Source: Escherichia phage UGJNEcP1. From it: a stretch of 64,000 nucleotides of DNA. Each line of letters starts with the position of its first letter. Positions within the stretch are counted from its first letter, which is position 1. The stretch lies in the sequence record OV754623, one strand, 5' to 3'. Made by a program: the position numbers and the translations under genes. The notes under the pieces were generated by a model. It did not search any database, was not told where the DNA came from, and was given only the letters and a program-made list of their open reading frames with translations. This document shows, in pieces, positions 6,964 through 28,298 of this stretch.

Positions 6964-7199
6964 TACCGATTGTGTTTTAAATGTTGATAAAGCTCTTCAA
7001 CTTGTTTAGGGTCCAAAACAATTAAGTCATTTTCTTGACGAAGATAAATCCATCCCTTATCCCCAGGGCCATTTTTACAAAACATCACCGTCGTCATATC
7101 GTCATCTTCAGCGCTTTCAGGTAAAAGTTCAAGTACACCGTCTTCAGATTTTCCAGTATAATCGTAAAGCATAATATCCTCACATAATCTCGTTAACAT
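6963..7199 (-). CDS. hypothetical protein (78 aa)
   Basis: ORF on coding strand, overlaps upstream gene end. Confidence 0.5.
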   Translation of the reverse strand: MLTRLCEDIMLYDYTGKSEDGVLELLPESAEDDDMTTVMFCKNGPGDKGWIYLRQENDLIVLDPKQVEELYQHLKHNR

Positions 7200-8015: not shown

Positions 8016-8597
8016 TTATAACAACCCTGTCAAATCATTCCAATGCTTCCGGCATAATGACACATATCTATCGGTATCACCAATTTCAATTTGACTGCCA
8101 TCTGTAATTGGAAGTCCGTCTTCCGTGACTCTAGCTACCATTGTGGCCTTTTTACCACAATGACAGACACCTTTAAGTTCAACAAGCTTATCGGCGATAG
8201 CCATTAATGCTTGAGAACCTTCAAATAGATTACCTTTAAAATCTGTTCGTAGTCCATATGCCATTACCGGCACATTGTATACGTCAACAATACGACTAAG
8301 TTGATACACCTTTTCAGTAGTTAAGAACTGAGCTTCGTCAACAAATACACAGTGAATATCCTTTTGTGCTGCAGCCCATTTATAGAATTCAAAGATATCC
8401 ATGTCTTTTGTAATTATATTGGCATCCTGACGAATACCAATACGAGAGACTATTTCACCTTTTGAATCACGAGTATCAATAGCCGGTTTAAGAACTAATA
8501 CACCCATGCCACGTTCTTTATAGTTATGTGCGGCAGTAAGTAATGAAGCAGACTTACCAGCGTTCATAGCGGCATAGGTAAAAATTAAACTAGCCAT
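8016..8597 (-). CDS. tk: thymidine kinase
   Basis: P-loop AMNAGKS, 193 aa, C-terminal Zn-ribbon Cys pairs (CHCGKK...C); strong recalled identity to T4 Tk. Confidence 0.9.
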   Translation of the reverse strand: MASLIFTYAAMNAGKSASLLTAAHNYKERGMGVLVLKPAIDTRDSKGEIVSRIGIRQDANIITKDMDIFEFYKWAAAQKDIHCVFVDEAQFLTTEKVYQLSRIVDVYNVPVMAYGLRTDFKGNLFEGSQALMAIADKLVELKGVCHCGKKATMVARVTEDGLPITDGSQIEIGDTDRYVSLCRKHWNDLTGLL

Positions 8598-12194: not shown

Positions 12195-12503
12195 TCAATT
12201 AGAAAATAAATTTATCCAAGATTTTTCTTTAATCAAAAATGGGTCGGAATTAAACGCCATTAAACTTTGAGTGATTAATCCTTTAAATGGCCCATCAATA
12301 AATTCCATTTTGAAATGTGGAATACTAGTCATCAACCGTGCATTAGGAGCAGTACAAAGAACCTGCTGCCCTGCAAACGGTCCTTTAGTCAAACGATAAC
12401 GTTTAGGTTTAAAATGATAAATCTCGTAATTTTCTACAAGAGCCCTTTTATTGCATACTGGGCTGTTATAACAATACTCAAAAACTTCAATAGTGGTCAT
12501 CAT
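12195..12503 (-). CDS. hypothetical protein (~102 aa)
   Basis: ATG overlapping upstream stop (ATGATGA at 12497-12503). Confidence 0.45.
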   Translation of the reverse strand: MMTTIEVFEYCYNSPVCNKRALVENYEIYHFKPKRYRLTKGPFAGQQVLCTAPNARLMTSIPHFKMEFIDGPFKGLITQSLMAFNSDPFLIKEKSWINLFSN

Positions 12504-13039
12504 TGCATTCCAATCACAAAAAATTGAGGACGAGCAATACCACCGATGCAATATTTGCTTTTGCAACAGTGTTGGACTGTTTTAATATGGATGTCGTAAA
12601 TCTTATCCATATCAGGAGCTTTAATAGGCTCGTCAATTATGTACAGAATACGAGAAAGCGTTAATCCACGGAATTTATGTCCTTCATTACCAATAAAACT
12701 ACGGACAGAATCAGTAAATAAACGGAATCTAATATCATCGCTAGAATAACGAGAAAATTCTTTTTTAATGTTGCCAACAGAAATTTTAGCATAAGCTGAA
12801 GTATTAGAAAGAACAATAACTGTTCCACCATCATACAGCCAATTAACAGCAAAATTAGTTACTGCGGTCGATTTACCAGATTGCCTGCCGCCGTCTAAAC
12901 GAAGTGTACAGTACTGCTTGAGTACGTCTTCAAATGGTGGGGCATAACCGTTCTTACAAATTTCTTCTACTCTAGCATCAGAATGGTGTGTAAAAGCATT
13001 CATCAGGGATAGATAAGGTCCGGTTAAAAATGTTCTCAT
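12500..13039 (-). CDS. small P-loop NTPase (Walker A GGRQSGKST, Walker B ILYIIDEP)
   Basis: Motifs read from translation; preceded by an unusual GC-rich ~170-nt leader. Confidence 0.55.
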   Translation of the reverse strand: MRTFLTGPYLSLMNAFTHHSDARVEEICKNGYAPPFEDVLKQYCTLRLDGGRQSGKSTAVTNFAVNWLYDGGTVIVLSNTSAYAKISVGNIKKEFSRYSSDDIRFRLFTDSVRSFIGNEGHKFRGLTLSRILYIIDEPIKAPDMDKIYDIHIKTVQHCCKSKYCIGGIARPQFFVIGMQ

Positions 13040-15340: not shown

Positions 15341-15799
15341 TTATAGGAGGGTAGTGAGCACCTTATATAATGATTTGCCCATTACATATTCCCATTGAGA
15401 AGGTTTAATTAAAGCGAATGCATCAAATTCAGGAATCTGTCGTCCGTCTGGGAATGTATGATAGGAATTACAAACACTGTTTCTGAATTGCTCGTGCTCT
15501 ACAGGGATGGTATATTGGAACAGATGAATATTCTTATTGTCTGAGTAATGATGTTCACCTAGGTCTTTCAGGAAGGCAGGGTCATATTGTGTAAACCCAG
15601 TTTCTTCTTCACATTCGCGAATAGCGGCTTCAATAGGAGATTCACCAGGTTCGACACGTCCTTTAGGAATATCCCACCGATGAGCTAATGCACCTTTAGG
15701 ACGAGAACCAGTTACACGCCCCATGAATAATTCTTTATCTTCGGTAAGGAAAATAATACCGGCTGATAGTTCTTTCACTTTATTTTTCTTACTCATCAT
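15341..15799 (-). CDS. nudE: Nudix hydrolase
   Basis: Nudix box GRVEPGESPIEAAIRECEEETG; position adjacent to e. Confidence 0.85.
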   Translation of the reverse strand: MMSKKNKVKELSAGIIFLTEDKELFMGRVTGSRPKGALAHRWDIPKGRVEPGESPIEAAIRECEEETGFTQYDPAFLKDLGEHHYSDNKNIHLFQYTIPVEHEQFRNSVCNSYHTFPDGRQIPEFDAFALIKPSQWEYVMGKSLYKVLTTLL

Positions 15800-16025
15800 C
15801 TCGGTCCCATGATTTGGCCATTAATTCGGACATAAATTCTTCAATGCGCGTTTCTTTAGATGGACTTTCACTATTAGAGACCGCAAGTTTGTAATCTGCA
15901 ATAGGACGGAACAAATCAAGGTCCGTATTAAGGTCGTCTTTGATTTTTTCTTCTGACACATCTTTATCGTATGTGTACAGATAACTATCACATGATTCTG
16001 ATTTAATGTAAATTGCTATACTCAT
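15789..16025 (-). CDS. hypothetical acidic protein (~78 aa)
   Basis: ATGA junction with upstream gene. Confidence 0.45.
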   Translation of the reverse strand: MSIAIYIKSESCDSYLYTYDKDVSEEKIKDDLNTDLDLFRPIADYKLAVSNSESPSKETRIEEFMSELMAKSWDRDDE

Positions 16026-16513
16026 CTCAAATTCCTGCATTCGGTAATAAAACGTTCAACTTCATTATTCTTGGCCTTTATCCTGTCTTTACGTTCCTGT
16101 AAACTACTTTTAACAAGATTAATAATGATGGCGGCGGTACCGCCGCCAATGATGCCACCAACAACACTTATTATACTAGATGCTAATAAGATAGCAATAA
16201 TATCAACAAAACCGAAAGAACTCACCTTAGTACTAAAAAACCATACCGACGGTACAAATATAATCCATCCTGTTATCCATTGGCACTTATTGAAAAACTT
16301 TTCAAGCTCAGCTTGAGTTGTTCGTATTACTTCATCGATAGGTTGATATCCATTAATGTATCTGTTCACGATAATACCTGCTGGCTGGTCGATTTTAAAT
16401 TCTTGGCAAATATGTTTCACTAAATAGGATGGACAGGATGTCCAATCTACTGAATAGTATGAAATACCTTCATTGCCATCGTCTATATTAGACCAATATG
16501 TTTTGTTAATCAT
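16022..16513 (-). CDS. membrane protein with C-terminal ERFITECR motif
   Basis: Hydrophobic and Gly-rich helices (IIAILLASSIISVVGGIIGGG) plus shared C-terminal motif. Confidence 0.55.
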   Translation of the reverse strand: MINKTYWSNIDDGNEGISYYSVDWTSCPSYLVKHICQEFKIDQPAGIIVNRYINGYQPIDEVIRTTQAELEKFFNKCQWITGWIIFVPSVWFFSTKVSSFGFVDIIAILLASSIISVVGGIIGGGTAAIIINLVKSSLQERKDRIKAKNNEVERFITECRNLR

Positions 16514-17199
16514 TACCAGCCTTCCATAGGGAATTCCAGATAAACTTGGGCATTTACACGAATTTCATTGGTAATCTTTTTAACTCGGTCTGTATTACGA
16601 GATACACGTCCGAACCAACGCCATCCATTACTAATTGCACGAGAACCGGTGTGCCATGTTTGCCAATCAAACTGAAGAAGAGTACGGTCTGGAGCTTCCC
16701 ATTTCTCTAGTTCGCCTTTTTCGATTTTTTCGAGGACTTCTTTGTGCCACTGGCGATAGATAAGTTCGCCATCAGGAATCTGACTGAACTCTGCAGTTCC
16801 TGTTGCAAAATGAGTAGGACACACATCAGCGTTAACAAGACCAAGAATATGTTCAGAATGGTAACGAGGGTTGTCATAGTCAGGTTGTCCTGCAGTAATA
16901 AAGTGTTGACCAACCGGAATATCCGGGCGTGGTACATCGTCATGATGATATCCAGGAATAGCAGGGTACCAACCAGGCATCAGCATGTGGACTCGTGAAT
17001 CAAATACAACTTGATCGTTATTCCAATCATCAGGCAAGTTCATAATGAAAGAGCGAGTAATAGGACCGCCGTTATTATAAGCAAATTCTAAACTACAGTT
17101 GAAGAACATAGGCTCGTTTTTAATCTGGTCGTTTTTAATCGCATGAGCAAAACCACCTACTGCACGAGCTTGACTATTAAACACTTTAGAACTATTCAT
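16513..17199 (-). CDS. hypothetical protein (228 aa), possible H-x-D...H metal-binding enzyme
   Basis: YHHDDV and distal His residues; assignment tentative. Confidence 0.5.
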   Translation of the reverse strand: MNSSKVFNSQARAVGGFAHAIKNDQIKNEPMFFNCSLEFAYNNGGPITRSFIMNLPDDWNNDQVVFDSRVHMLMPGWYPAIPGYHHDDVPRPDIPVGQHFITAGQPDYDNPRYHSEHILGLVNADVCPTHFATGTAEFSQIPDGELIYRQWHKEVLEKIEKGELEKWEAPDRTLLQFDWQTWHTGSRAISNGWRWFGRVSRNTDRVKKITNEIRVNAQVYLEFPMEGW

Positions 17200-17200
17200 A

Positions 17201-17506
17201 TTATTTTCCTCGACATTCTTTAATGAAATTTTCTAGATTGGTAGATTCAATAGCTTTTTTACGAGCTTCTGCGTGTTCTTCTTCGGACAATTTACGTTTA
17301 TAATTGACCCAGACATTATGGTCGAAACCAGACGTGGCATATAATAACAAAGCTCCAACGAATAGCAAAAATGGTGATAAAAATATACAACCAGGAACAC
17401 CATCCATACTGTAAGCCTTTTGTAATACTGCAACAGAAAGAGTTGCGTAAAAAGGTGATGCAAGTATTGTTAAAAGACCAATTCGATTGGTTTCTGTTAA
17501 TTTCAT
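17201..17506 (-). CDS. small 2-TM membrane protein with C-terminal ENFIKECR motif
   Basis: Two hydrophobic segments then charged tail ending LENFIKECRGK. Confidence 0.55.
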   Translation of the reverse strand: MKLTETNRIGLLTILASPFYATLSVAVLQKAYSMDGVPGCIFLSPFLLFVGALLLYATSGFDHNVWVNYKRKLSEEEHAEARKKAIESTNLENFIKECRGK

Positions 17507-17527
17507 AATATTCTCCTCATGTTTTAA

Positions 17528-17564
17528 TAGGACTACTATAACATAGTCCTATCAGTTTGTACAC
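17528..17564 (-). promoter_or_regulatory. PeSL-type early promoter (variant -35)
   Basis: taggactactataacatagtcctatc hairpin cassette. Confidence 0.5.
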
Positions 17565-17783
17565 TTATTTTGACATTTCTTCGATGTCACGACGATACCC
17601 ATCACGAACTTCACGAAGAGCTTCAAGGCCACACATAGGCTCGATACCAGTAATGTGAACTTGATTAATCTGATACTCTACATCTTCTAACTGAGCGAAA
17701 ACATAACGACGTTCCGCTGCACAACCAGGTTTAGCTTTGCCGAAACGTTTATTCAAAGTAGTCATTTTTATATCTCCATTCAC
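17565..17783 (-). CDS. hypothetical protein (72 aa or shorter)
   Basis: ORF downstream of promoter 17795-17833. Confidence 0.45.
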   Translation of the reverse strand: MNGDIKMTTLNKRFGKAKPGCAAERRYVFAQLEDVEYQINQVHITGIEPMCGLEALREVRDGYRRDIEEMSK

Positions 17784-17794
17784 TCATTTGTTTT

Positions 17795-17833
17795 GATAGG
17801 TCTATAGTATCAACAACTACAGACCTTGTAAAC
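17795..17833 (-). promoter_or_regulatory. PeSL-type early promoter
   Basis: gataggtctatagtatc... + GTTTAC. Confidence 0.6.
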
Positions 17834-17845
17834 TGTTTTGTGAAA

Positions 17846-18802
17846 TTATTTGAAAGGTTTTACCATATGAAAGTTTTGTTTGAAACGCTTGACGTAATCG
17901 TCATGTCCTAAGCTTTGGTACATACTTACTACTTTGCTATAATTTTCCCAAGCGAACTCACGGAACCATCCTGATGTGATTGATGTACAGACCTTTTCAA
18001 GGGCCATCATAAAACTATCACGCGGATGGATTTTAAAGTCATTAGGAATCTGTGAACGTTCAAGAGCTAATACACAAGCTTCTTCATATACACCGGCTAA
18101 TTTAACCATTTCTGGTAATGATTCGAACTTCTCGCGTGAGGTCATGACTTCTGAGCCTTCTTTCATATAAAACTTATAAGCAGGCTGGTCAGTTAGTGCA
18201 ATGGCTTCATGGATAGTATCATGGTCATACGTATAGATGTCGTCTTTAAAGAATGCATTTTTAGTTGTGTCGAGAACCGGATGTGAGTAGTTCAGCACTT
18301 CTTTCTGGCGTTTCAGCATAATTTCAGTAAGTTCATCGTTCAGTGTAACACCTTTACCACGAAGATACTGAATATGGTTCATAGTCTTTAAAAAGAATGG
18401 ATTATTTTTCTTGAAACGATGAGACATCTTAATTGCAAGACATATCTCAGGAGTTGCCCAGTAAAACCCAGTCAAACGATCTTTAGTCAAATTTTTCTTG
18501 GTGTATTTTAAAAGGTCATAAGAAGACGTGAAATCTTCAGGAGTGAGTTCACCGACTAATTCACGGACATTAGTGATTGCCGGAACAATATATGCTTCAA
18601 AATGAGTTTCGCGTCCATTATGGAAGCATTTGAAAACTTGGACATCAGGGTTATCTTGGTGAACATATACACCCATCATTTGATTTTTGAATGCATTCCA
18701 AGAACCTTGGTCCGCAATAAAGTCCCAATCGCTATTTTTGATAGCGCTAGAATCAATAAGACCATGATAGTGAAGTGCACGAGAACCAATAACTAACATC
18801 AT
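17846..18802 (-). CDS. hypothetical protein (318 aa)
   Basis: Long ORF, no family recognised. Confidence 0.6.
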   Translation of the reverse strand: MMLVIGSRALHYHGLIDSSAIKNSDWDFIADQGSWNAFKNQMMGVYVHQDNPDVQVFKCFHNGRETHFEAYIVPAITNVRELVGELTPEDFTSSYDLLKYTKKNLTKDRLTGFYWATPEICLAIKMSHRFKKNNPFFLKTMNHIQYLRGKGVTLNDELTEIMLKRQKEVLNYSHPVLDTTKNAFFKDDIYTYDHDTIHEAIALTDQPAYKFYMKEGSEVMTSREKFESLPEMVKLAGVYEEACVLALERSQIPNDFKIHPRDSFMMALEKVCTSITSGWFREFAWENYSKVVSMYQSLGHDDYVKRFKQNFHMVKPFK

Positions 18803-18830
18803 AATATTTTCCTCGGATTAATTCATTAAC

Positions 18831-19082
18831 TTAAATTTCACGACATGCGATATCATATTCATCCCAGAGGTCATCATGTGAAGCCTCTACCAATGGAACG
18901 ATTGCACCGTTTATGTCTTCATTATAAGGGCAAATTGTACAGTGCGCATCTTCGAATCGGATGCCTTTGTGTTCAGATTTTTTATAACGCATATCGAATA
19001 TCTTTGCAAACTTTTCACGAGTAATAGTTTTAGCAACTACTTCGGTTCCGATACTTTCGTAATAAATCATTGTGGACTCCAT
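18831..19082 (-). CDS. hypothetical protein (83 aa)
   Basis: ORF directly downstream of promoter 19090-19128. Confidence 0.5.
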   Translation of the reverse strand: MESTMIYYESIGTEVVAKTITREKFAKIFDMRYKKSEHKGIRFEDAHCTICPYNEDINGAIVPLVEASHDDLWDEYDIACREI

Positions 19083-19089
19083 TTAATTT

Positions 19090-19128
19090 GATAGGACTAC
19101 TATAACATAGCCCTATCTTGTTGTAAAC
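19090..19128 (-). promoter_or_regulatory. PeSL-type early promoter
   Basis: gataggactactataacatagccctatc + GTTTAC. Confidence 0.6.
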
Positions 19129-19132
19129 TGTT

Positions 19133-19330
19133 TTAGCAAGAATAACTAGATGATACCCAGCCTTGAACAGTAATACTATTATTTGATAACGAGATTGCGT
19201 CCTGGAGATTCAGACCTGCGTTATCTTCAATCCACAATGTAACTTCTTCACGCTCTTCGGTTGCAATCTGGAACAGGTTTTCCAGAGCAGCTACTGCCGT
19301 ACGTACAGCACAATCTAATTCACGGGACAT
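19133..19330 (-). CDS. small protein, WVSSSxxC family member 3 (65 aa)
   Basis: Ends ...QGWVSSSYSC-stop; paralog of the two upstream genes. Confidence 0.55.
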   Translation of the reverse strand: MSRELDCAVRTAVAALENLFQIATEEREEVTLWIEDNAGLNLQDAISLSNNSITVQGWVSSSYSC

Positions 19331-19339
19331 ATGGTTTCC

Positions 19340-19612
19340 TTAGCAAGTGTGAGAAGATGCGACCCAACCACCAGTTTCGAGGCTCAGGTTGTAGTCATAT
19401 TGGTAAACGTCAGCCCATTCAGCATAGCCGTTTTTTGTACAACGTTCAAGATCGGCTTTAAGATGTCCGGGCGAATGATAGGTTCCACCCATACCATAAG
19501 CTGGATACAAGTCGAATGTTGTGTTTTGTTTATCAGCAATTTCTTTGGCAGCCTCAATAGCTGCATAGATTTTTGCTACAGCTTCAGCCAGTTCGGTTTG
19601 TTCTTTAGACAT
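19340..19612 (-). CDS. small protein, WVSSSxxC family member 2 (90 aa)
   Basis: Ends ...GGWVASSHTC-stop. Confidence 0.55.
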   Translation of the reverse strand: MSKEQTELAEAVAKIYAAIEAAKEIADKQNTTFDLYPAYGMGGTYHSPGHLKADLERCTKNGYAEWADVYQYDYNLSLETGGWVASSHTC

Positions 19613-19621
19613 AATGATTCC

Positions 19622-19927
19622 TTAGCACAACGCAGAAGACGAAACCCAAGCACCTTCAGTAATAACGTATCCATTACCTTCACGCTTAACATCGCCGCCA
19701 TTATTTTCAATTTCATCTTTCATCCACTGGGATACGATTTCACCCTTAGGATAATAAGTACGACCGCTACCATAATCACCTACAGAAAACGATACTGCAT
19801 ATTGGTCTGCGATCTTTGTTGCTTCTTCTTCGATACGTTCAGCTTGATTTAGAAGTTTATAAATTGCATCTGAAGCGGATTTGGCATCATTAAATTCTGG
19901 TACTTTAATTTCGATAATCTTACTCAT
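19622..19927 (-). CDS. small protein, WVSSSxxC family member 1 (101 aa)
   Basis: Ends ...GAWVSSSALC-stop; shares KIAD and YG.G.TY segments with member 2. Confidence 0.55.
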   Translation of the reverse strand: MSKIIEIKVPEFNDAKSASDAIYKLLNQAERIEEEATKIADQYAVSFSVGDYGSGRTYYPKGEIVSQWMKDEIENNGGDVKREGNGYVITEGAWVSSSALC

Positions 19928-20283
19928 TTTCTACATTCCTTAATAAAGTTTTCGATTGTTTCATTTTCACGTCTAGCTAAGAGTTCATTATAACTAATCA
20001 TTTGAGAAGCGTAAACCTTTTTATTTTTCTTGTTATGGTTTATAAAATCGTAGTAAAAATAGACTACAGTACAAAATGATGCGATGGATGCAAAGGCTTG
20101 GGTATACCGTAAGTCCTGCCATTGGTCTGTGAATCCACCGGTGTTCCCTATAAATCCTAACACAACGCCGTCAATAAGAAATCCAACTAATCCAAAGGCA
20201 AATCCCATGCCAATACTCATAATAAAAATTAAAATGTTCTCACCAAGAGAAGGCCGTACAGTTAAGAGTTGAGGCTTTTGCAT
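19924..20283 (-). CDS. membrane protein with C-terminal ENFIKECRK motif
   Basis: Multiple hydrophobic helices; ATGA overlap with downstream gene. Confidence 0.55.
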   Translation of the reverse strand: MQKPQLLTVRPSLGENILIFIMSIGMGFAFGLVGFLIDGVVLGFIGNTGGFTDQWQDLRYTQAFASIASFCTVVYFYYDFINHNKKNKKVYASQMISYNELLARRENETIENFIKECRK

Positions 20284-20657
20284 CTTATTTCCTTAACGAA
20301 TTCCATAGCTTCTTCATATTCATACTTTTTAACAGCTTCATCATACTGAGCTTGAGCTTTTGCGCACTGAACTTTCCATTCACGAACTCGAGCTCTGTGA
20401 TGACGGCCTTGGTGCCAATATCCTACCCAATTAATAGGCATTAATAAAAACGGTACAATAAGTGGTGCGACGAACATTAATGAAAACGCGGCAACAGACG
20501 ATATAACTTTATTGTAATCTAAAACAGCTCCTATAATCATAAAGATTAAAAATGCTAAAGCTAAAATAGGGCCAAATAGTACTTCATTTGGGATTAATTT
20601 ACGCTTGTATTCATATGCCCAGGGCTTACTTGGCATGTATAGGGTTGGCTTTGACAT
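20262..20657 (-). CDS. 2-TM membrane protein with related C-terminus (EFVKEIRC)
   Basis: Start placed at MSKPTLY (ATG 20655-20657) to avoid overlap with upstream gene. Confidence 0.5.
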   Translation of the reverse strand: MSKPTLYMPSKPWAYEYKRKLIPNEVLFGPILALAFLIFMIIGAVLDYNKVISSVAAFSLMFVAPLIVPFLLMPINWVGYWHQGRHHRARVREWKVQCAKAQAQYDEAVKKYEYEEAMEFVKEIRCKSLNS

Positions 20658-21249
20658 ATTCTCTACATTCCATAATAAATTGCTCAAGGATTAAATTGTT
20701 AGTGAAATTAGGACTAACAACCATGGTTTCATAAAGCGCATCAATAGCACTTAAAGCATCAACTCTTTTAAGCAAAGGCTTGCCTTCATACATAGTTTCA
20801 GAATCGACGATTAACGTAAAGTAATATTTTTTATTATCGACTAGAACTTCAGTATCGATATAAAACATGTTAGACCTCAGAAGCTTATCTCTAAAACCAT
20901 AATAATCTTCTGAACGTTCGCTGATATATTCCCATTCAGTGTTTAAACAACAAACAGACCACGTAGGAGCAACGAAATTAGTGAATCTAATATCATGATC
21001 TGCAACTAGTTTAGCAATAGCTCCGATATCATGAATCATAATACCCGGGGCTAATAAAGATTTTCTGCTATGGCTAGCCGTTTTCTCAGTAGTCTCATAA
21101 GAAGACGACCAGTACCATTTACGTCCAGTTGCAACATATCGTAATGAATCAACTAAAGACGTAGGTGGATTTACCTTATCTCGGAACTCTTCGAACATTG
21201 AGTCAATATCATTATTTTGGTTTCGCATGTTAACTCCTTTATTATCCAA
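20626..21249 (-). CDS. hypothetical soluble protein (207 aa) with C-terminal EQFIMECRE motif
   Basis: ORF; motif near C-terminus. Confidence 0.55.
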   Translation of the reverse strand: MDNKGVNMRNQNNDIDSMFEEFRDKVNPPTSLVDSLRYVATGRKWYWSSSYETTEKTASHSRKSLLAPGIMIHDIGAIAKLVADHDIRFTNFVAPTWSVCCLNTEWEYISERSEDYYGFRDKLLRSNMFYIDTEVLVDNKKYYFTLIVDSETMYEGKPLLKRVDALSAIDALYETMVVSPNFTNNLILEQFIMECREYVKANPIHAK

Positions 21250-21277
21250 AAGGAGGACCGGAGTCCTCCGTATTATT

Positions 21278-21886
21278 TTATTTCAAAGAGTTAATATATT
21301 CTTGTACATCAGCAGAAGTGGTTTCGACACCGGCTGGAGTGCCATTGAACGTTTCAACACGAGTCAGAGTGTCTTCGATATCAACCTTAGTTAGTGCAGC
21401 AATTTCAATCACATCATCGGCCGTAGAGATACCAAGAGCATTAGCTGCTCGAGTTTCACGAATGTATTCGAGTTTGATTGCCAGATTCTGACGAGCATCA
21501 TCAAGTTCAACCACCTTACGAGCAATTTCAATTCGCATAGCGGCATACCCGTCAGCTTTTGTATTAAGTTGTTCGGCAGTTCGACGATACAGAAGACCAA
21601 GCTTAGCATGCATGGTAACATCTTGTCCTTCAGCCAGGAGCTTACGAATTTCACGTTCCTTAGAAGCGGCTTGCTTATTCTTTTCAATAACAAGTTCGCG
21701 AATACGTTTTTCTTCATTAATAGATTTAACAGAAGCCGTTTTTAGTTCTTTGATTTGGGTAATCAACTTATCTGCAGCTGCGTTATACTGTTCTTCGACA
21801 GTCAGATTTTTAGCCATAGCAGTACCCAGTTTAGTGCGGATGAATTCAACAAGTTTCTTCAGTGTGTTCATATTATTACCTTTCAA
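21278..21886 (-). CDS. coiled-coil protein (202 aa)
   Basis: Heptad-rich sequence; no confident family. Confidence 0.5.
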
Positions 21887-27707: not shown

Positions 27708-28298
27708 TTAACGCAAGGAAGGGTGTCTAGAAATGGATTTAGATTCGACCGCTTGACGTGGTTGTTGAGATACAATGACTTCACCATCCTTTTCTATCGT
27801 CATATACGCGTAATGAATAGTTGCTACGCAAGTAACGGCAGGGTCAGAATCTTCAGTGTAACTAAATTCAATTTCGCTCAGATCGGAAATCCATGGTTTA
27901 TAGAAATTTGCCGTCAAAACTACTTCGGTCTTATTGTTGTTTAAAATGTGCAAAGTAACAAACTCAGGACCATCGGAGTGGGCCGTATTATGTCCGGTTA
28001 TATAGTTATTAGTGCTGAGCATCCATTTATACATGTTCATCCAGGACGTCATGTCTTCATCAACTATAAATCGTACAACAAAAGGGTCATATTCAAATGT
28101 GGTGCCTGCACGCATTGCACGTCCTAACCCCATTGTGCCTGTAACAGTTTCAACAACAGGAATTCTCACGCCCGGCAATGGAGCCGTTTGGGCATTGAGC
28201 ACAAAACCTGAAGTTCGTGTACTATCTGGGATATCCACAACAAAGTTTGTTATATTTGTTTGGTTAAAAATCTGTCTCGCTGGACGAGTCATAAGCAC
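27708..28298 (-). CDS. 3: tail completion / sheath stabiliser protein (gp3)
   Basis: Position between genes 1 and 2; track ORF 196 aa (T4 gp3 recalled as ~176 aa, so start may be downstream). Confidence 0.7.
   Translation of the reverse strand: MLMTRPARQIFNQTNITNFVVDIPDSTRTSGFVLNAQTAPLPGVRIPVVETVTGTMGLGRAMRAGTTFEYDPFVVRFIVDEDMTSWMNMYKWMLSTNNYITGHNTAHSDGPEFVTLHILNNNKTEVVLTANFYKPWISDLSEIEFSYTEDSDPAVTCVATIHYAYMTIEKDGEVIVSQQPRQAVESKSISRHPSLR

Follow-up and report, generated by a model that had tools for sequence, protein, structure and literature searches.

Five neighbouring genes in a 64,000-nucleotide stretch of Escherichia phage UGJNEcP1 (sequence record OV754623; this whole stretch is referred to below as the window) end in nearly the same short peptide, E-x-F-I-x-E-C-R or a degenerate form of it, and the locus raises the question of what a common tail is doing on proteins that are otherwise dissimilar. 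The window is from a Mosigvirus (RB69-like), and the region is 100% identical to that of Escherichia phage UGJNEcP2. All genes between 14 and 24 kb of the window are on the minus strand, and T4 gene names are given to the ORFs (open reading frames) by similarity to T4; the genes with the tail are the orthologues of e.2, e.3, e.4 and e.5 and a gene coding for a 101-aa protein, within a cluster that extends from e.6 to nudE (Table 1). These fast-evolving ORFans of the e.2 to e.6 region include conserved yet unexplained genes of T4, the best-studied phage. A first-pass annotation, made by a model from the letters alone, had pointed to the tail and suggested that it could be a docking, degron or targeting tag on a family of small membrane effectors. 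Here we show that the tail is selected as a peptide and describe evidence that e.6, the gene at the head of the cluster, encodes a probable divergent PspA/IM30 protein to which the tail may dock.

A recurrent C-terminal motif

The strict pattern E.F[IV].E[CI]R has four matches in a six-frame translation of the window, all in the frames of cluster genes and 1–11 residues before the stop codon, compared with a mean of 0.02 and a maximum of one in 100 Markov-1 random sequences. With a position-specific matrix, no cluster member falls below 22.8 bits, and 15.1 bits is the most that any background match reaches in the window and 124 kb of T4. We conclude that the motif is genuine and particular to this cluster, which confirms the recurrent tail described in the first-pass annotation on five neighbouring ORFs. 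The remaining copy, that of e.4, is degenerate, and the start codon of e.3 overlaps its R-C codons. For e.5 the tail was described correctly but the 5' end was not: position 21249 is an upstream TTG, and the annotated start is the ATG at 21228. Relaxing the pattern to F[IV]..CR adds two matches (27897–27914, plus strand, PWFIEICRQ; 8530–8547, minus strand, VCFITYCRT), a number that fits the chance level of about two per window; the rest of the motif is absent from both.

The core pattern derived from 31 instances is hydrophobic(-3)-x-x-[FW](0)-[IV](+1)-x-x-C(+4)-[RK](+5), which in the window takes the form L/I/V-E-x-F-I-x-E-C-R. Position -3, which was not used in selecting the instances, is always L, I, F, V or M (31 of 31), and positions -2, -1, +2 and +3 are polar. 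This i, i+3, i+4, i+7 spacing is what one side of a short amphipathic helix would show, the helix lying at the C-terminus or close to it (mean hydrophobic moment 0.49 versus 0.34 for shuffled sequences, with 18% of individual shuffles reaching 0.49). An AlphaFold2 (AF2) model of e.5 places the motif, with low confidence, in a helix at residues 179–194; the model (overall pLDDT 55) draws on four homologue clusters from a word-indexed homology search and was not used for fold searches. One member per genome has I, S, V or M in place of Cys while F, [IVL] and R stay, and these include e.4 here, an e.3-like gene in a Karam-like phage and in PEi20, and the gene after e.5 in Marfa and Merlin. We therefore regard the Cys position as basically a small or hydrophobic contact at which Cys is strongly preferred.

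The proteins that carry the motif are diverse. Those in the window belong to five different PHROG families, none of the five has a Pfam domain, and four have transmembrane segments predicted from hydropathy, e.5 being without any, in line with the description of them as mostly membrane proteins. Once the motif is trimmed off, all-against-all BLASTP pairs orthologues only, with no cross-family similarity, and the carriers include soluble 95–99-aa proteins and soluble e.5-position proteins of 95–315 aa as well as membrane proteins. They are thus not one detectable family of small membrane effectors, and nothing in the analysis points to the superinfection-exclusion or lysis-timing roles that had been offered as examples. 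The e.2 orthologue has a conserved N-terminal domain followed by hydrophobic segments and a basic tail, and in the membrane carriers generally the last hydrophobic segment is followed by a K/R-rich stretch and then the motif, with about 37–45 residues between segment and motif in several of them. The position past the K/R-rich stretch suggests, by the positive-inside rule, that the motif helix is most likely cytoplasmic. The 101-aa protein is confined to Mosigvirus, where tblastn finds 149 records, each at least 88% identical, and a protein-seeded search of IMG/VR returns just two close Mosigvirus contigs. The products of e.3 and e.4 share an M-x-K-P start and their overall build, and the T4 junction DNA of the two is nearly identical; they may be old or very distant tandem paralogues, which leaves the other carriers unexplained. 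The motif thus has the properties of a short linear docking motif, in that the same peptide is found on unrelated proteins, is kept in their orthologues, and occupies an accessible terminal position.

Selection on the peptide

Among 24 distinct DNA versions of the motif, Phe, Cys and Arg/Lys are invariant while their codons vary. Cys is encoded by TGC (14) or TGT (10), Arg by CGT (7), AGA (6), AGG (5), CGA (3) or CGC (2), and the hydrophobic residue at -3 by CTT, TTA, CTA and TTG (four Leu codons), among others. The first two codon positions have a high information content and the third a low one, and in a test of synonymous-site conservation third positions and six-fold-degenerate codons were found to vary freely. 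The codon differences quoted in the first-pass annotation are correct, and the ENFIKECR copies of e.3 and the 101-aa protein differ by four synonymous and no non-synonymous changes. This free codon variation at invariant residues shows that the motif is under amino-acid selection and is not a DNA or RNA element. Protein-level selection, as opposed to a copied DNA block, had been proposed from the sequence alone, and it is further upheld by the presence of the motif in dissimilar carriers and in orthologues of 23–47% identity; the counter-explanation then envisaged, conservation at synonymous sites, does not apply.

The motif does overlap the ribosome-binding region of the downstream gene, as had been noted, and this is a second, minor constraint. 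At the window junctions the next start codon lies -1 to 11 nt past the Arg codon and the Shine-Dalgarno sequence overlaps or abuts the motif: the K-E codons AAGGAA of e.3 double as the Shine-Dalgarno of the next gene, and at the 101-aa junction the Shine-Dalgarno GAGGA comes after the Arg codon. No RNA structure is predicted at the junctions (fold z-scores -1.0 to +1.6). In other genera Q, G, H, Y, N, S, L, M or D takes the place of the Glu preceding Cys, and the embedded ATG is lost with it. A scan of IMG/VR for exact DNA matches to TTTATTAARGAATGYMG gave at least 120 stretches, almost all of them chance matches or unrelated internal FIKECR strings, with five T4-like loci among the matches listed; a podovirus-type protein with an internal ..ALENFIKECRG.. 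was judged a coincidence because its context is unrelated.

Several specific roles for parts of the motif were considered and rejected. The ATG within GAATG(T/C) as the start, or start-stop, of a mini-ORF is not conserved beyond the E. coli phages and has the wrong Shine-Dalgarno spacing, and the Glu of I-x-E that would be needed for a T4 prohead-protease site is not conserved. A metal site built on the Cys is at odds with the Ala, Ile, Val, Met or Ser that some members have instead, and no domain is present that would make C-R a rhodanese-like active site. In records OP870144–OP870147, OR125554 and OL964745 the e.3/e.4 region is labelled 'sulfurtransferase'; no domain supports the label, which may stem from a C-R-x-G-like string.

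Conservation across phages

The motif is also present in T4, where e.3 ends ..KEFVIDCRKIK, e.4 ..KFVKESRCKSQS and e.5 ..EKFVKECREYVKAITIPSK, and further lineages with it are the Dhaka-like, Karam-like (Enterobacter phage), Marfa-, Kanagawa-, Moon-, Teguna-, Biquarta-, Pseudoteven- and Ceceduovirus groups, with 1–5 carriers per genome. Altogether, 11 lineages besides that of the window retain it in orthologues or positional analogues, and as a peptide it is conserved in more than a dozen phage genera. Comparison of the Mosig-, Tequatro-, Dhaka- and Karam-like phages shows the motif in all e.2 and e.5 orthologues or positional analogues, and in the e.3 of three of these four groups, the Karam-like e.3 having the tail FIKNVRRK. 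The absence from orthologues in related phages that the first-pass annotation had allowed for is thus not seen. In family alignments at 23–47% identity the motif is the main invariant block, and on e.5-position proteins it recurs from Tevenvirinae to Aeromonas and Pseudoteven phages, in differing contexts and 5–27 residues before the stop. The degenerate e.4-type form has counterparts in T4 (KFVKESRC), Marfa (AFLKEIRK) and Merlin (EFVMEMRK), and Marfa has two adjacent genes ending NW[IV]KGCRK.

Some carriers have decayed around their tails. In the T4 reference sequence (AF158101.6, locus 12491–12961, between e.2 and nudE) e.2 is annotated as 102 aa and is broken by frameshifts, which leave its second hydrophobic segment out of frame. 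Directly adjoining nudE is an in-frame remnant of 44 codons that ends NNFITECRKLK, and the annotated start of nudE is the ATG inside the E-C codons of this remnant. An intact 162-aa e.2 with the same ending is present in phages G157lw and sb2. Similarly, e.3 is cut to its last 30 codons in some Mosigviruses (G2469, coordinates 6991–7090; phiE142; and at least one LF82 phage), and these remnants still encode ..IENFIKECRK and hold the ribosome-binding site of the next gene.

e.6 as a probable PspA/IM30 protein

The context missed in the first-pass annotation is that the cluster is headed by e.6. This gene is widespread and well conserved (1,101 phage records), in Straboviridae and, more recognisably, in Ackermannviridae, and is annotated as hypothetical or, in some records, as a 'host specificity protein'. 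Members of the PspA/IM30/Vipp1 group are expected to have an N-terminal amphipathic helix, a long hairpin and short C-terminal helices in about 200–220 aa. The AF2 model of e.6 (pLDDT 75.7) has helices at residues 2–22, 25–80, 86–144, 157–160, 166–174 and 186–196, and thus an N-terminal helix, a long alpha1-alpha2/3 hairpin (pLDDT 83–96) and shorter C-terminal helices. Foldseek comparison of the model with the PDB gives Vipp1/PspA structures at ranks 1 to 8, followed by archaeal CdvB2; against viral models it gives five e.6 relatives and one unnamed match, then a Snf7 protein and a phage 'PspA/IM30 family protein'.

The sequence relationship is reached through relatives. The e.6 of the window has no Pfam match of its own, a PDB sequence search with e.5 and e.6 gave nothing useful, and a full HMMER scan of 1.8 billion representatives with an e.6 profile yields a 45-member phage family and reaches no bacterial PspA directly. 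PF04012 (PspA_IM30) is matched by 5 of 31 e.6-family members, two of them clearing the gathering cut-off of 33.9 bits (P0067 with 39.0 and P0061 with 35.1), over residues 6–146 and profile positions 2–143, and the e.6 profile finds both proteins full length (4e-17 and 1e-19, respectively). The e.6 profile hidden Markov model is also collinear with E. coli PspA (1–144 to 1–145) and with Vipp1 sll0617 (6–138 to 6–140, E = 1.7). From the fold and family-profile evidence together we conclude that e.6 is a predicted divergent PspA/IM30 (ESCRT-III superfamily) protein; the assignment in the window is fold-based and transitive, the PF04012 matches being in relatives of the window e.6.

Association of the motif with e.6

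A sample of 14 lineages was examined for the joint occurrence of e.6 and the motif. An e.6 gene begins every cluster, the gene right after it has the motif or a variant in 12 of the 12 genera catalogued, and the motif is confined to the e.6–nudE gene cluster. P0067 and P0061 are on Ackermannviridae-like contigs, and there, as in Salmonella phage SJ3, downstream of the PspA_IM30 gene come genes for two to three mostly membrane-anchored proteins with variant tails (..ESILARARG.., ..DSIIKHARS.., ..ESILANARE.., ..KAIVHRARL.. and ..ESIVDRARTR..) that conform to I-[ILV]-x-x-A-R. This is the same architecture with F replaced by I and C by A. Muldoonvirus WSPA, whose e.6 is ~37% identical, has an intermediate tail (..IIHQARTR..); that of Pseudotevenvirus EC-F2 reads ..KFIHSCKK... 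A partial negative control comes from Slopekvirus KP15, in which 18 kb around nudE are devoid of both e.6 homologues and motif carriers. At the variable motif positions, non-orthologous copies are more alike within a genome than between genomes (0.237 versus 0.149, permutation p = 0.006), a pattern of concerted evolution that a shared partner would produce.

A candidate docking helix and its alternatives

We propose that the carriers dock through the motif: as a helix common to them all, it would link membrane anchors or adaptors to the phage PspA-like scaffold e.6, a reading to which we give close to an even chance of being correct. The e.2, e.3 and e.4 products, the 101-aa protein and the soluble e.5 would all bind one partner, most likely e.6, through the helix, and the membrane carriers would serve as anchors or adaptors that set a phage polymer of the PspA type on the inner membrane of the host, in the manner of PspB/PspC with PspA and of LiaI with LiaH. 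The ribosome-binding-site overlaps would then amount to tight translational coupling that keeps the partners co-expressed. A strong early-promoter-like site lies upstream of e.6 (21941–21913), a terminator-like hairpin precedes e.5 (Table 1), and from e.5 through e.4 and e.3 to the gene after e.3 each start overlaps or adjoins the preceding stop; this layout fits an abundant scaffold with less abundant, co-translated partners. Among the functions named in the first-pass annotation, docking is the most plausible class; nothing points to a degron, and the motif has no likeness to known degrons.

Several points weigh against this proposal. Some members have Ile, Ser, Val, Met or Ala for Cys, and any Cys-specific chemistry is therefore not universal. 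Individual carriers are dispensable, as the frameshifted e.2 of the T4 reference and the reduced e.3 of G2469, phiE142 and at least one LF82 phage illustrate. The partner could equally be other motif helices, in a hetero-bundle, or a host protein, and the concerted-evolution signal could come from gene conversion or recent paralogy, such as that of the adjacent Marfa genes.

Other explanations place the cause of the shared tail elsewhere. The tails could be the legacy of serial local duplications in which the repeat unit was offset from the gene boundaries and comprised an upstream tail, a ribosome-binding site and the next gene, the tail being kept for its overlap with the start and not for any common binding. 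Consistent with this, e.4 and e.3 both start M-[SQ]-K-P, nearly identical DNA precedes the two genes in T4 (AAATTTGTTAAGGAAT at both junctions), the downstream start lies -1 to ~30 nt past the motif in all cases, one cluster holds all carriers, and the Marfa genes ending NW[IV]KGCRK are adjacent. A constraint on the start site cannot, however, explain why invariant residues use many codons, with Arg drawn from both the AGR and CGN families; moreover, the Shine-Dalgarno is within the motif at some junctions and past it at others, the carriers have no similarity outside the motif, and the e.5-position proteins keep it from Tevenvirinae to Aeromonas/Pseudoteven phages in varied contexts and 5–27 residues from the stop. 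We regard this explanation as unlikely. That the peptide is a by-product of a conserved nucleotide element (a ribosome-binding region, a RegA/RegB-type site, a recombination linker or an RNA structure) is largely refuted and seems to us extremely unlikely. The next gene's Shine-Dalgarno overlaps or abuts the motif, the GAATG(T/C) coding for E-C is frequent in E. coli phages, and PeSL-type DNA cassettes are present in the same region, but the information follows codon periodicity with five Arg, four Leu and both Cys codons in use, the Glu and its ATG are replaced in other genera, and neither a predicted RNA structure nor the exact-DNA scan of IMG/VR, with its mostly chance matches, offers such an element.

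If the peptide itself matters, its target could be a host factor, with host PspA/PspF, FtsH or another inner-membrane hub as candidates, or it could be a tag for targeting, or a degron. A conserved short helix at the C-terminus of unrelated early proteins is how hub-binding elements typically look, the carriers evolve fast outside the motif, and the motif is alike in phages of different enterobacterial hosts. We nevertheless think a host target or tag rather improbable: the F to I and C to A changes of Ackermannviridae and Muldoonvirus track strong e.6 divergence, with hosts that are the same kinds of enterobacteria, the adjacency to e.6 is strict, and the pattern is that of an amphipathic helix and not of an unstructured tag. 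The motif could also act as a nascent-peptide regulator, an arrest or pausing sequence that links the carrier's insertion into the membrane with translation of the gene that follows, and it is true that amino acids are conserved directly 5' of the next start, even in e.5 and e.4 where the motif is not terminal, and that the spacing of ~37–45 residues from the last hydrophobic segment in several carriers would suit such a role. This we consider very improbable, as some carriers are soluble, the distance to the next start ranges from -1 to ~30 nt, the periodicity of hydrophobic residues suggests a folded amphipathic helix, the junctions have no stable mRNA structure for a paused ribosome to open, and there is no similarity to known arrest peptides.

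Returning to the docking helix, its wider implication would be that T-even and Vi1-like phages have a Psp/ESCRT-III-type membrane module of their own, in which e.6 and an expandable set of fast-evolving anchors or adaptors, plugged in by a shared helix, stabilise or remodel the host inner membrane during infection; we offer this as a speculation that is possible but on balance doubtful. Such a module, if it exists, may keep the membrane energised during lysis inhibition or blunt membrane-disrupting abortive-infection effectors, and the use of modular membrane anchors on a phage-encoded scaffold of the ESCRT-III type would amount to a novel form of host-envelope management. A shared selected peptide, the adjacency to e.6, a hidden PspA/Vipp1 candidate and the parallel in Vi1-like phages together make a testable system out of what had been a run of hypothetical proteins, with the motif as a minimal peptide handle for pull-downs, localisation and mutagenesis.

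Relationship to known systems

PspA homologues are typically encoded beside lineage-specific small membrane partners (PMC11237479). The PspA-PspB/PspC system of E. coli, LiaH-LiaI of B. subtilis and PspA-PspM of mycobacteria likewise have a PspA/IM30-type scaffold gene next to such proteins, which bind or recruit the scaffold by their cytoplasmic helices, and PspB, from its sequence, resembles the smallest carriers in having an N-terminal transmembrane segment followed by a cytoplasmic helix. The PspB tail (..ALESILDAEH..) also loosely resembles the ..ESILARAR.. of Ackermannviridae. The phage system differs in being phage-encoded and early-expressed, and in having 1–5 interchangeable partners that include soluble ones and whose binding we infer. 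The five carriers have no match to the PspB, PspC or LiaI Pfam profiles at E values up to 0.1, and the motif has no described counterpart in those systems.

Short C-terminal hub-binding peptides are well known, among them the SSB tail DDDIPF, the sliding-clamp motif QL[SD]LF and the FtsZ C-terminal peptide. As in the phage cluster, these are very short conserved peptides on unrelated proteins that share one binding site; they differ in sequence and in being part of disordered tails, whereas the phage motif has an amphipathic-helix pattern and is restricted to one gene cluster, with e.6 as a putative hub. The regulatory arrest peptides SecM, MifM and VemP are comparable in being conserved, in lying at the C-terminus of membrane or secreted proteins and in closely preceding the next start, but the phage motif has no sequence likeness to them and no downstream mRNA hairpin, is also found on soluble proteins, and has variable spacing. 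Arbiol, Comeau and Krisch reportedly described, in 2010, PeSL (promoter-early plus stem-loop) cassettes in hyperplastic regions of T4-type phages. These too are recurrent short conserved sequences at gene boundaries of plastic early regions, and such spacers are present here; they are, however, intergenic DNA conserved as nucleotides, unlike the motif, which is coding, synonymously variable and conserved as a peptide.

In full-text literature searches with peptide strings and with T4 e.2–e.6, neither the motif nor an identification of e.6 as a PspA came up, and phage systems are not covered in a 2025 review of bacterial ESCRT-III or in a 2024 survey of PSP partners. Phage proteins labelled PspA/IM30 exist in databases, and the existence of a phage PspA is therefore no novelty; the advance lies in recognising T4 e.6 as a PspA homologue, together with the tail motif that its neighbours share.

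Other features of the cluster

Table 1. Genes, motif copies and other features of the e.6–nudE region (window coordinates).
Feature	Coordinates	Strand	Evidence or remarks
e.6 orthologue (197 aa), head of cluster	21278..21871	minus	
Terminator-like hairpin GGAGGACTCCGGTCCTCC followed by TTTT, between e.6 and e.5	21252..21269	minus	pattern scan; terminator annotated there in phage G2469
e.5 orthologue (200 aa, soluble), first gene after e.6	20626..21228	minus	47% identity to T4 e.5; phrog_2607
Motif EQFIMECR in e.5, tail ..LEQFIMECREYVKANPIHAK-stop	20662..20685	minus	11 residues to stop; 4 nt to e.4 start codon
e.4 orthologue (131 aa, two hydrophobic segments)	20262..20657	minus	49% identity to Tequatrovirus e.4; phrog_2604; hydropathy
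Degenerate motif EFVKEIRC in e.4, tail ..MEFVKEIRCKSLNS-stop	20280..20303	minus	Ile at the Cys position; Cys after Arg
e.3 orthologue (119-aa membrane protein)	19924..20283	minus	35–40% identity to Tequatrovirus e.3; phrog_2330
Motif ENFIKECR in e.3, tail ..IENFIKECRK-stop	19930..19953	minus	1 residue to stop
Small paralogue with second tail motif	19622..19927	minus	
Small paralogue with second tail motif	19340..19612	minus	
Small paralogue with second tail motif	19133..19330	minus	
Spacer with early-promoter-like site and inverted repeat	~19099–19127	minus	
318-aa protein	17846..18802	minus	Pfam DUF7277 and DUF7275
Spacer with early-promoter-like site and inverted repeat	~17804–17832	minus	
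Spacer with early-promoter-like site and inverted repeat	~17535–17563	minus	
101-aa protein, two transmembrane segments, Mosigvirus only	17201..17506	minus	phrog_9798; hydropathy
Motif ENFIKECR in 101-aa protein, tail ..LENFIKECRGK-stop	17210..17233	minus	2 residues to stop
228-aa protein	16513..17199	minus	phrog_1843; no Pfam match
e.2 orthologue (163 aa)	16022..16513	minus	homologue of the intact e.2 found in Tequatro-, Dhaka- and Karam-like phages; phrog_2203
Motif ERFITECR in e.2, tail ..VERFITECRNLR-stop	16034..16057	minus	3 residues to stop
nudE (the lysozyme gene e comes next)	15341..15799	minus	

Other genes are interspersed with the motif carriers. The 318-aa protein is kept in the cluster in most genera examined. 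The 228-aa protein has an almost invariant C-terminus (..GRVSRNTDRVKKITNEIRVNAQVYLEFPMEGW) that is conserved far more than the neighbouring genes and is kept from Mosigvirus to Aeromonas phage Aszh-1, in which the gene is directly upstream of e.6. The three spacers each contain a T4-type early-promoter-like site (TTTACA/TGTACA, 17 nt, TATAGT/TACTAT) and an inverted repeat, of which ATAGGACTATGTTATAGTAGTCCTAT is an example.

The three small paralogues (phrog_899 and phrog_4882) have a second C-terminal motif, W-V-[SA]-S-S-x-x-C-stop, with the copies GWVSSSYSC, GGWVASSHTC and GAWVSSSALC in the window. It is found in three to five genes of the same cluster in the Dhaka- and Karam-like phages and the Marfa-, Kanagawa-, Moon- and Tegunaviruses, and in none of T4, and its variants include WYPSSC, WFSSSMSC and WQSSSYQC.

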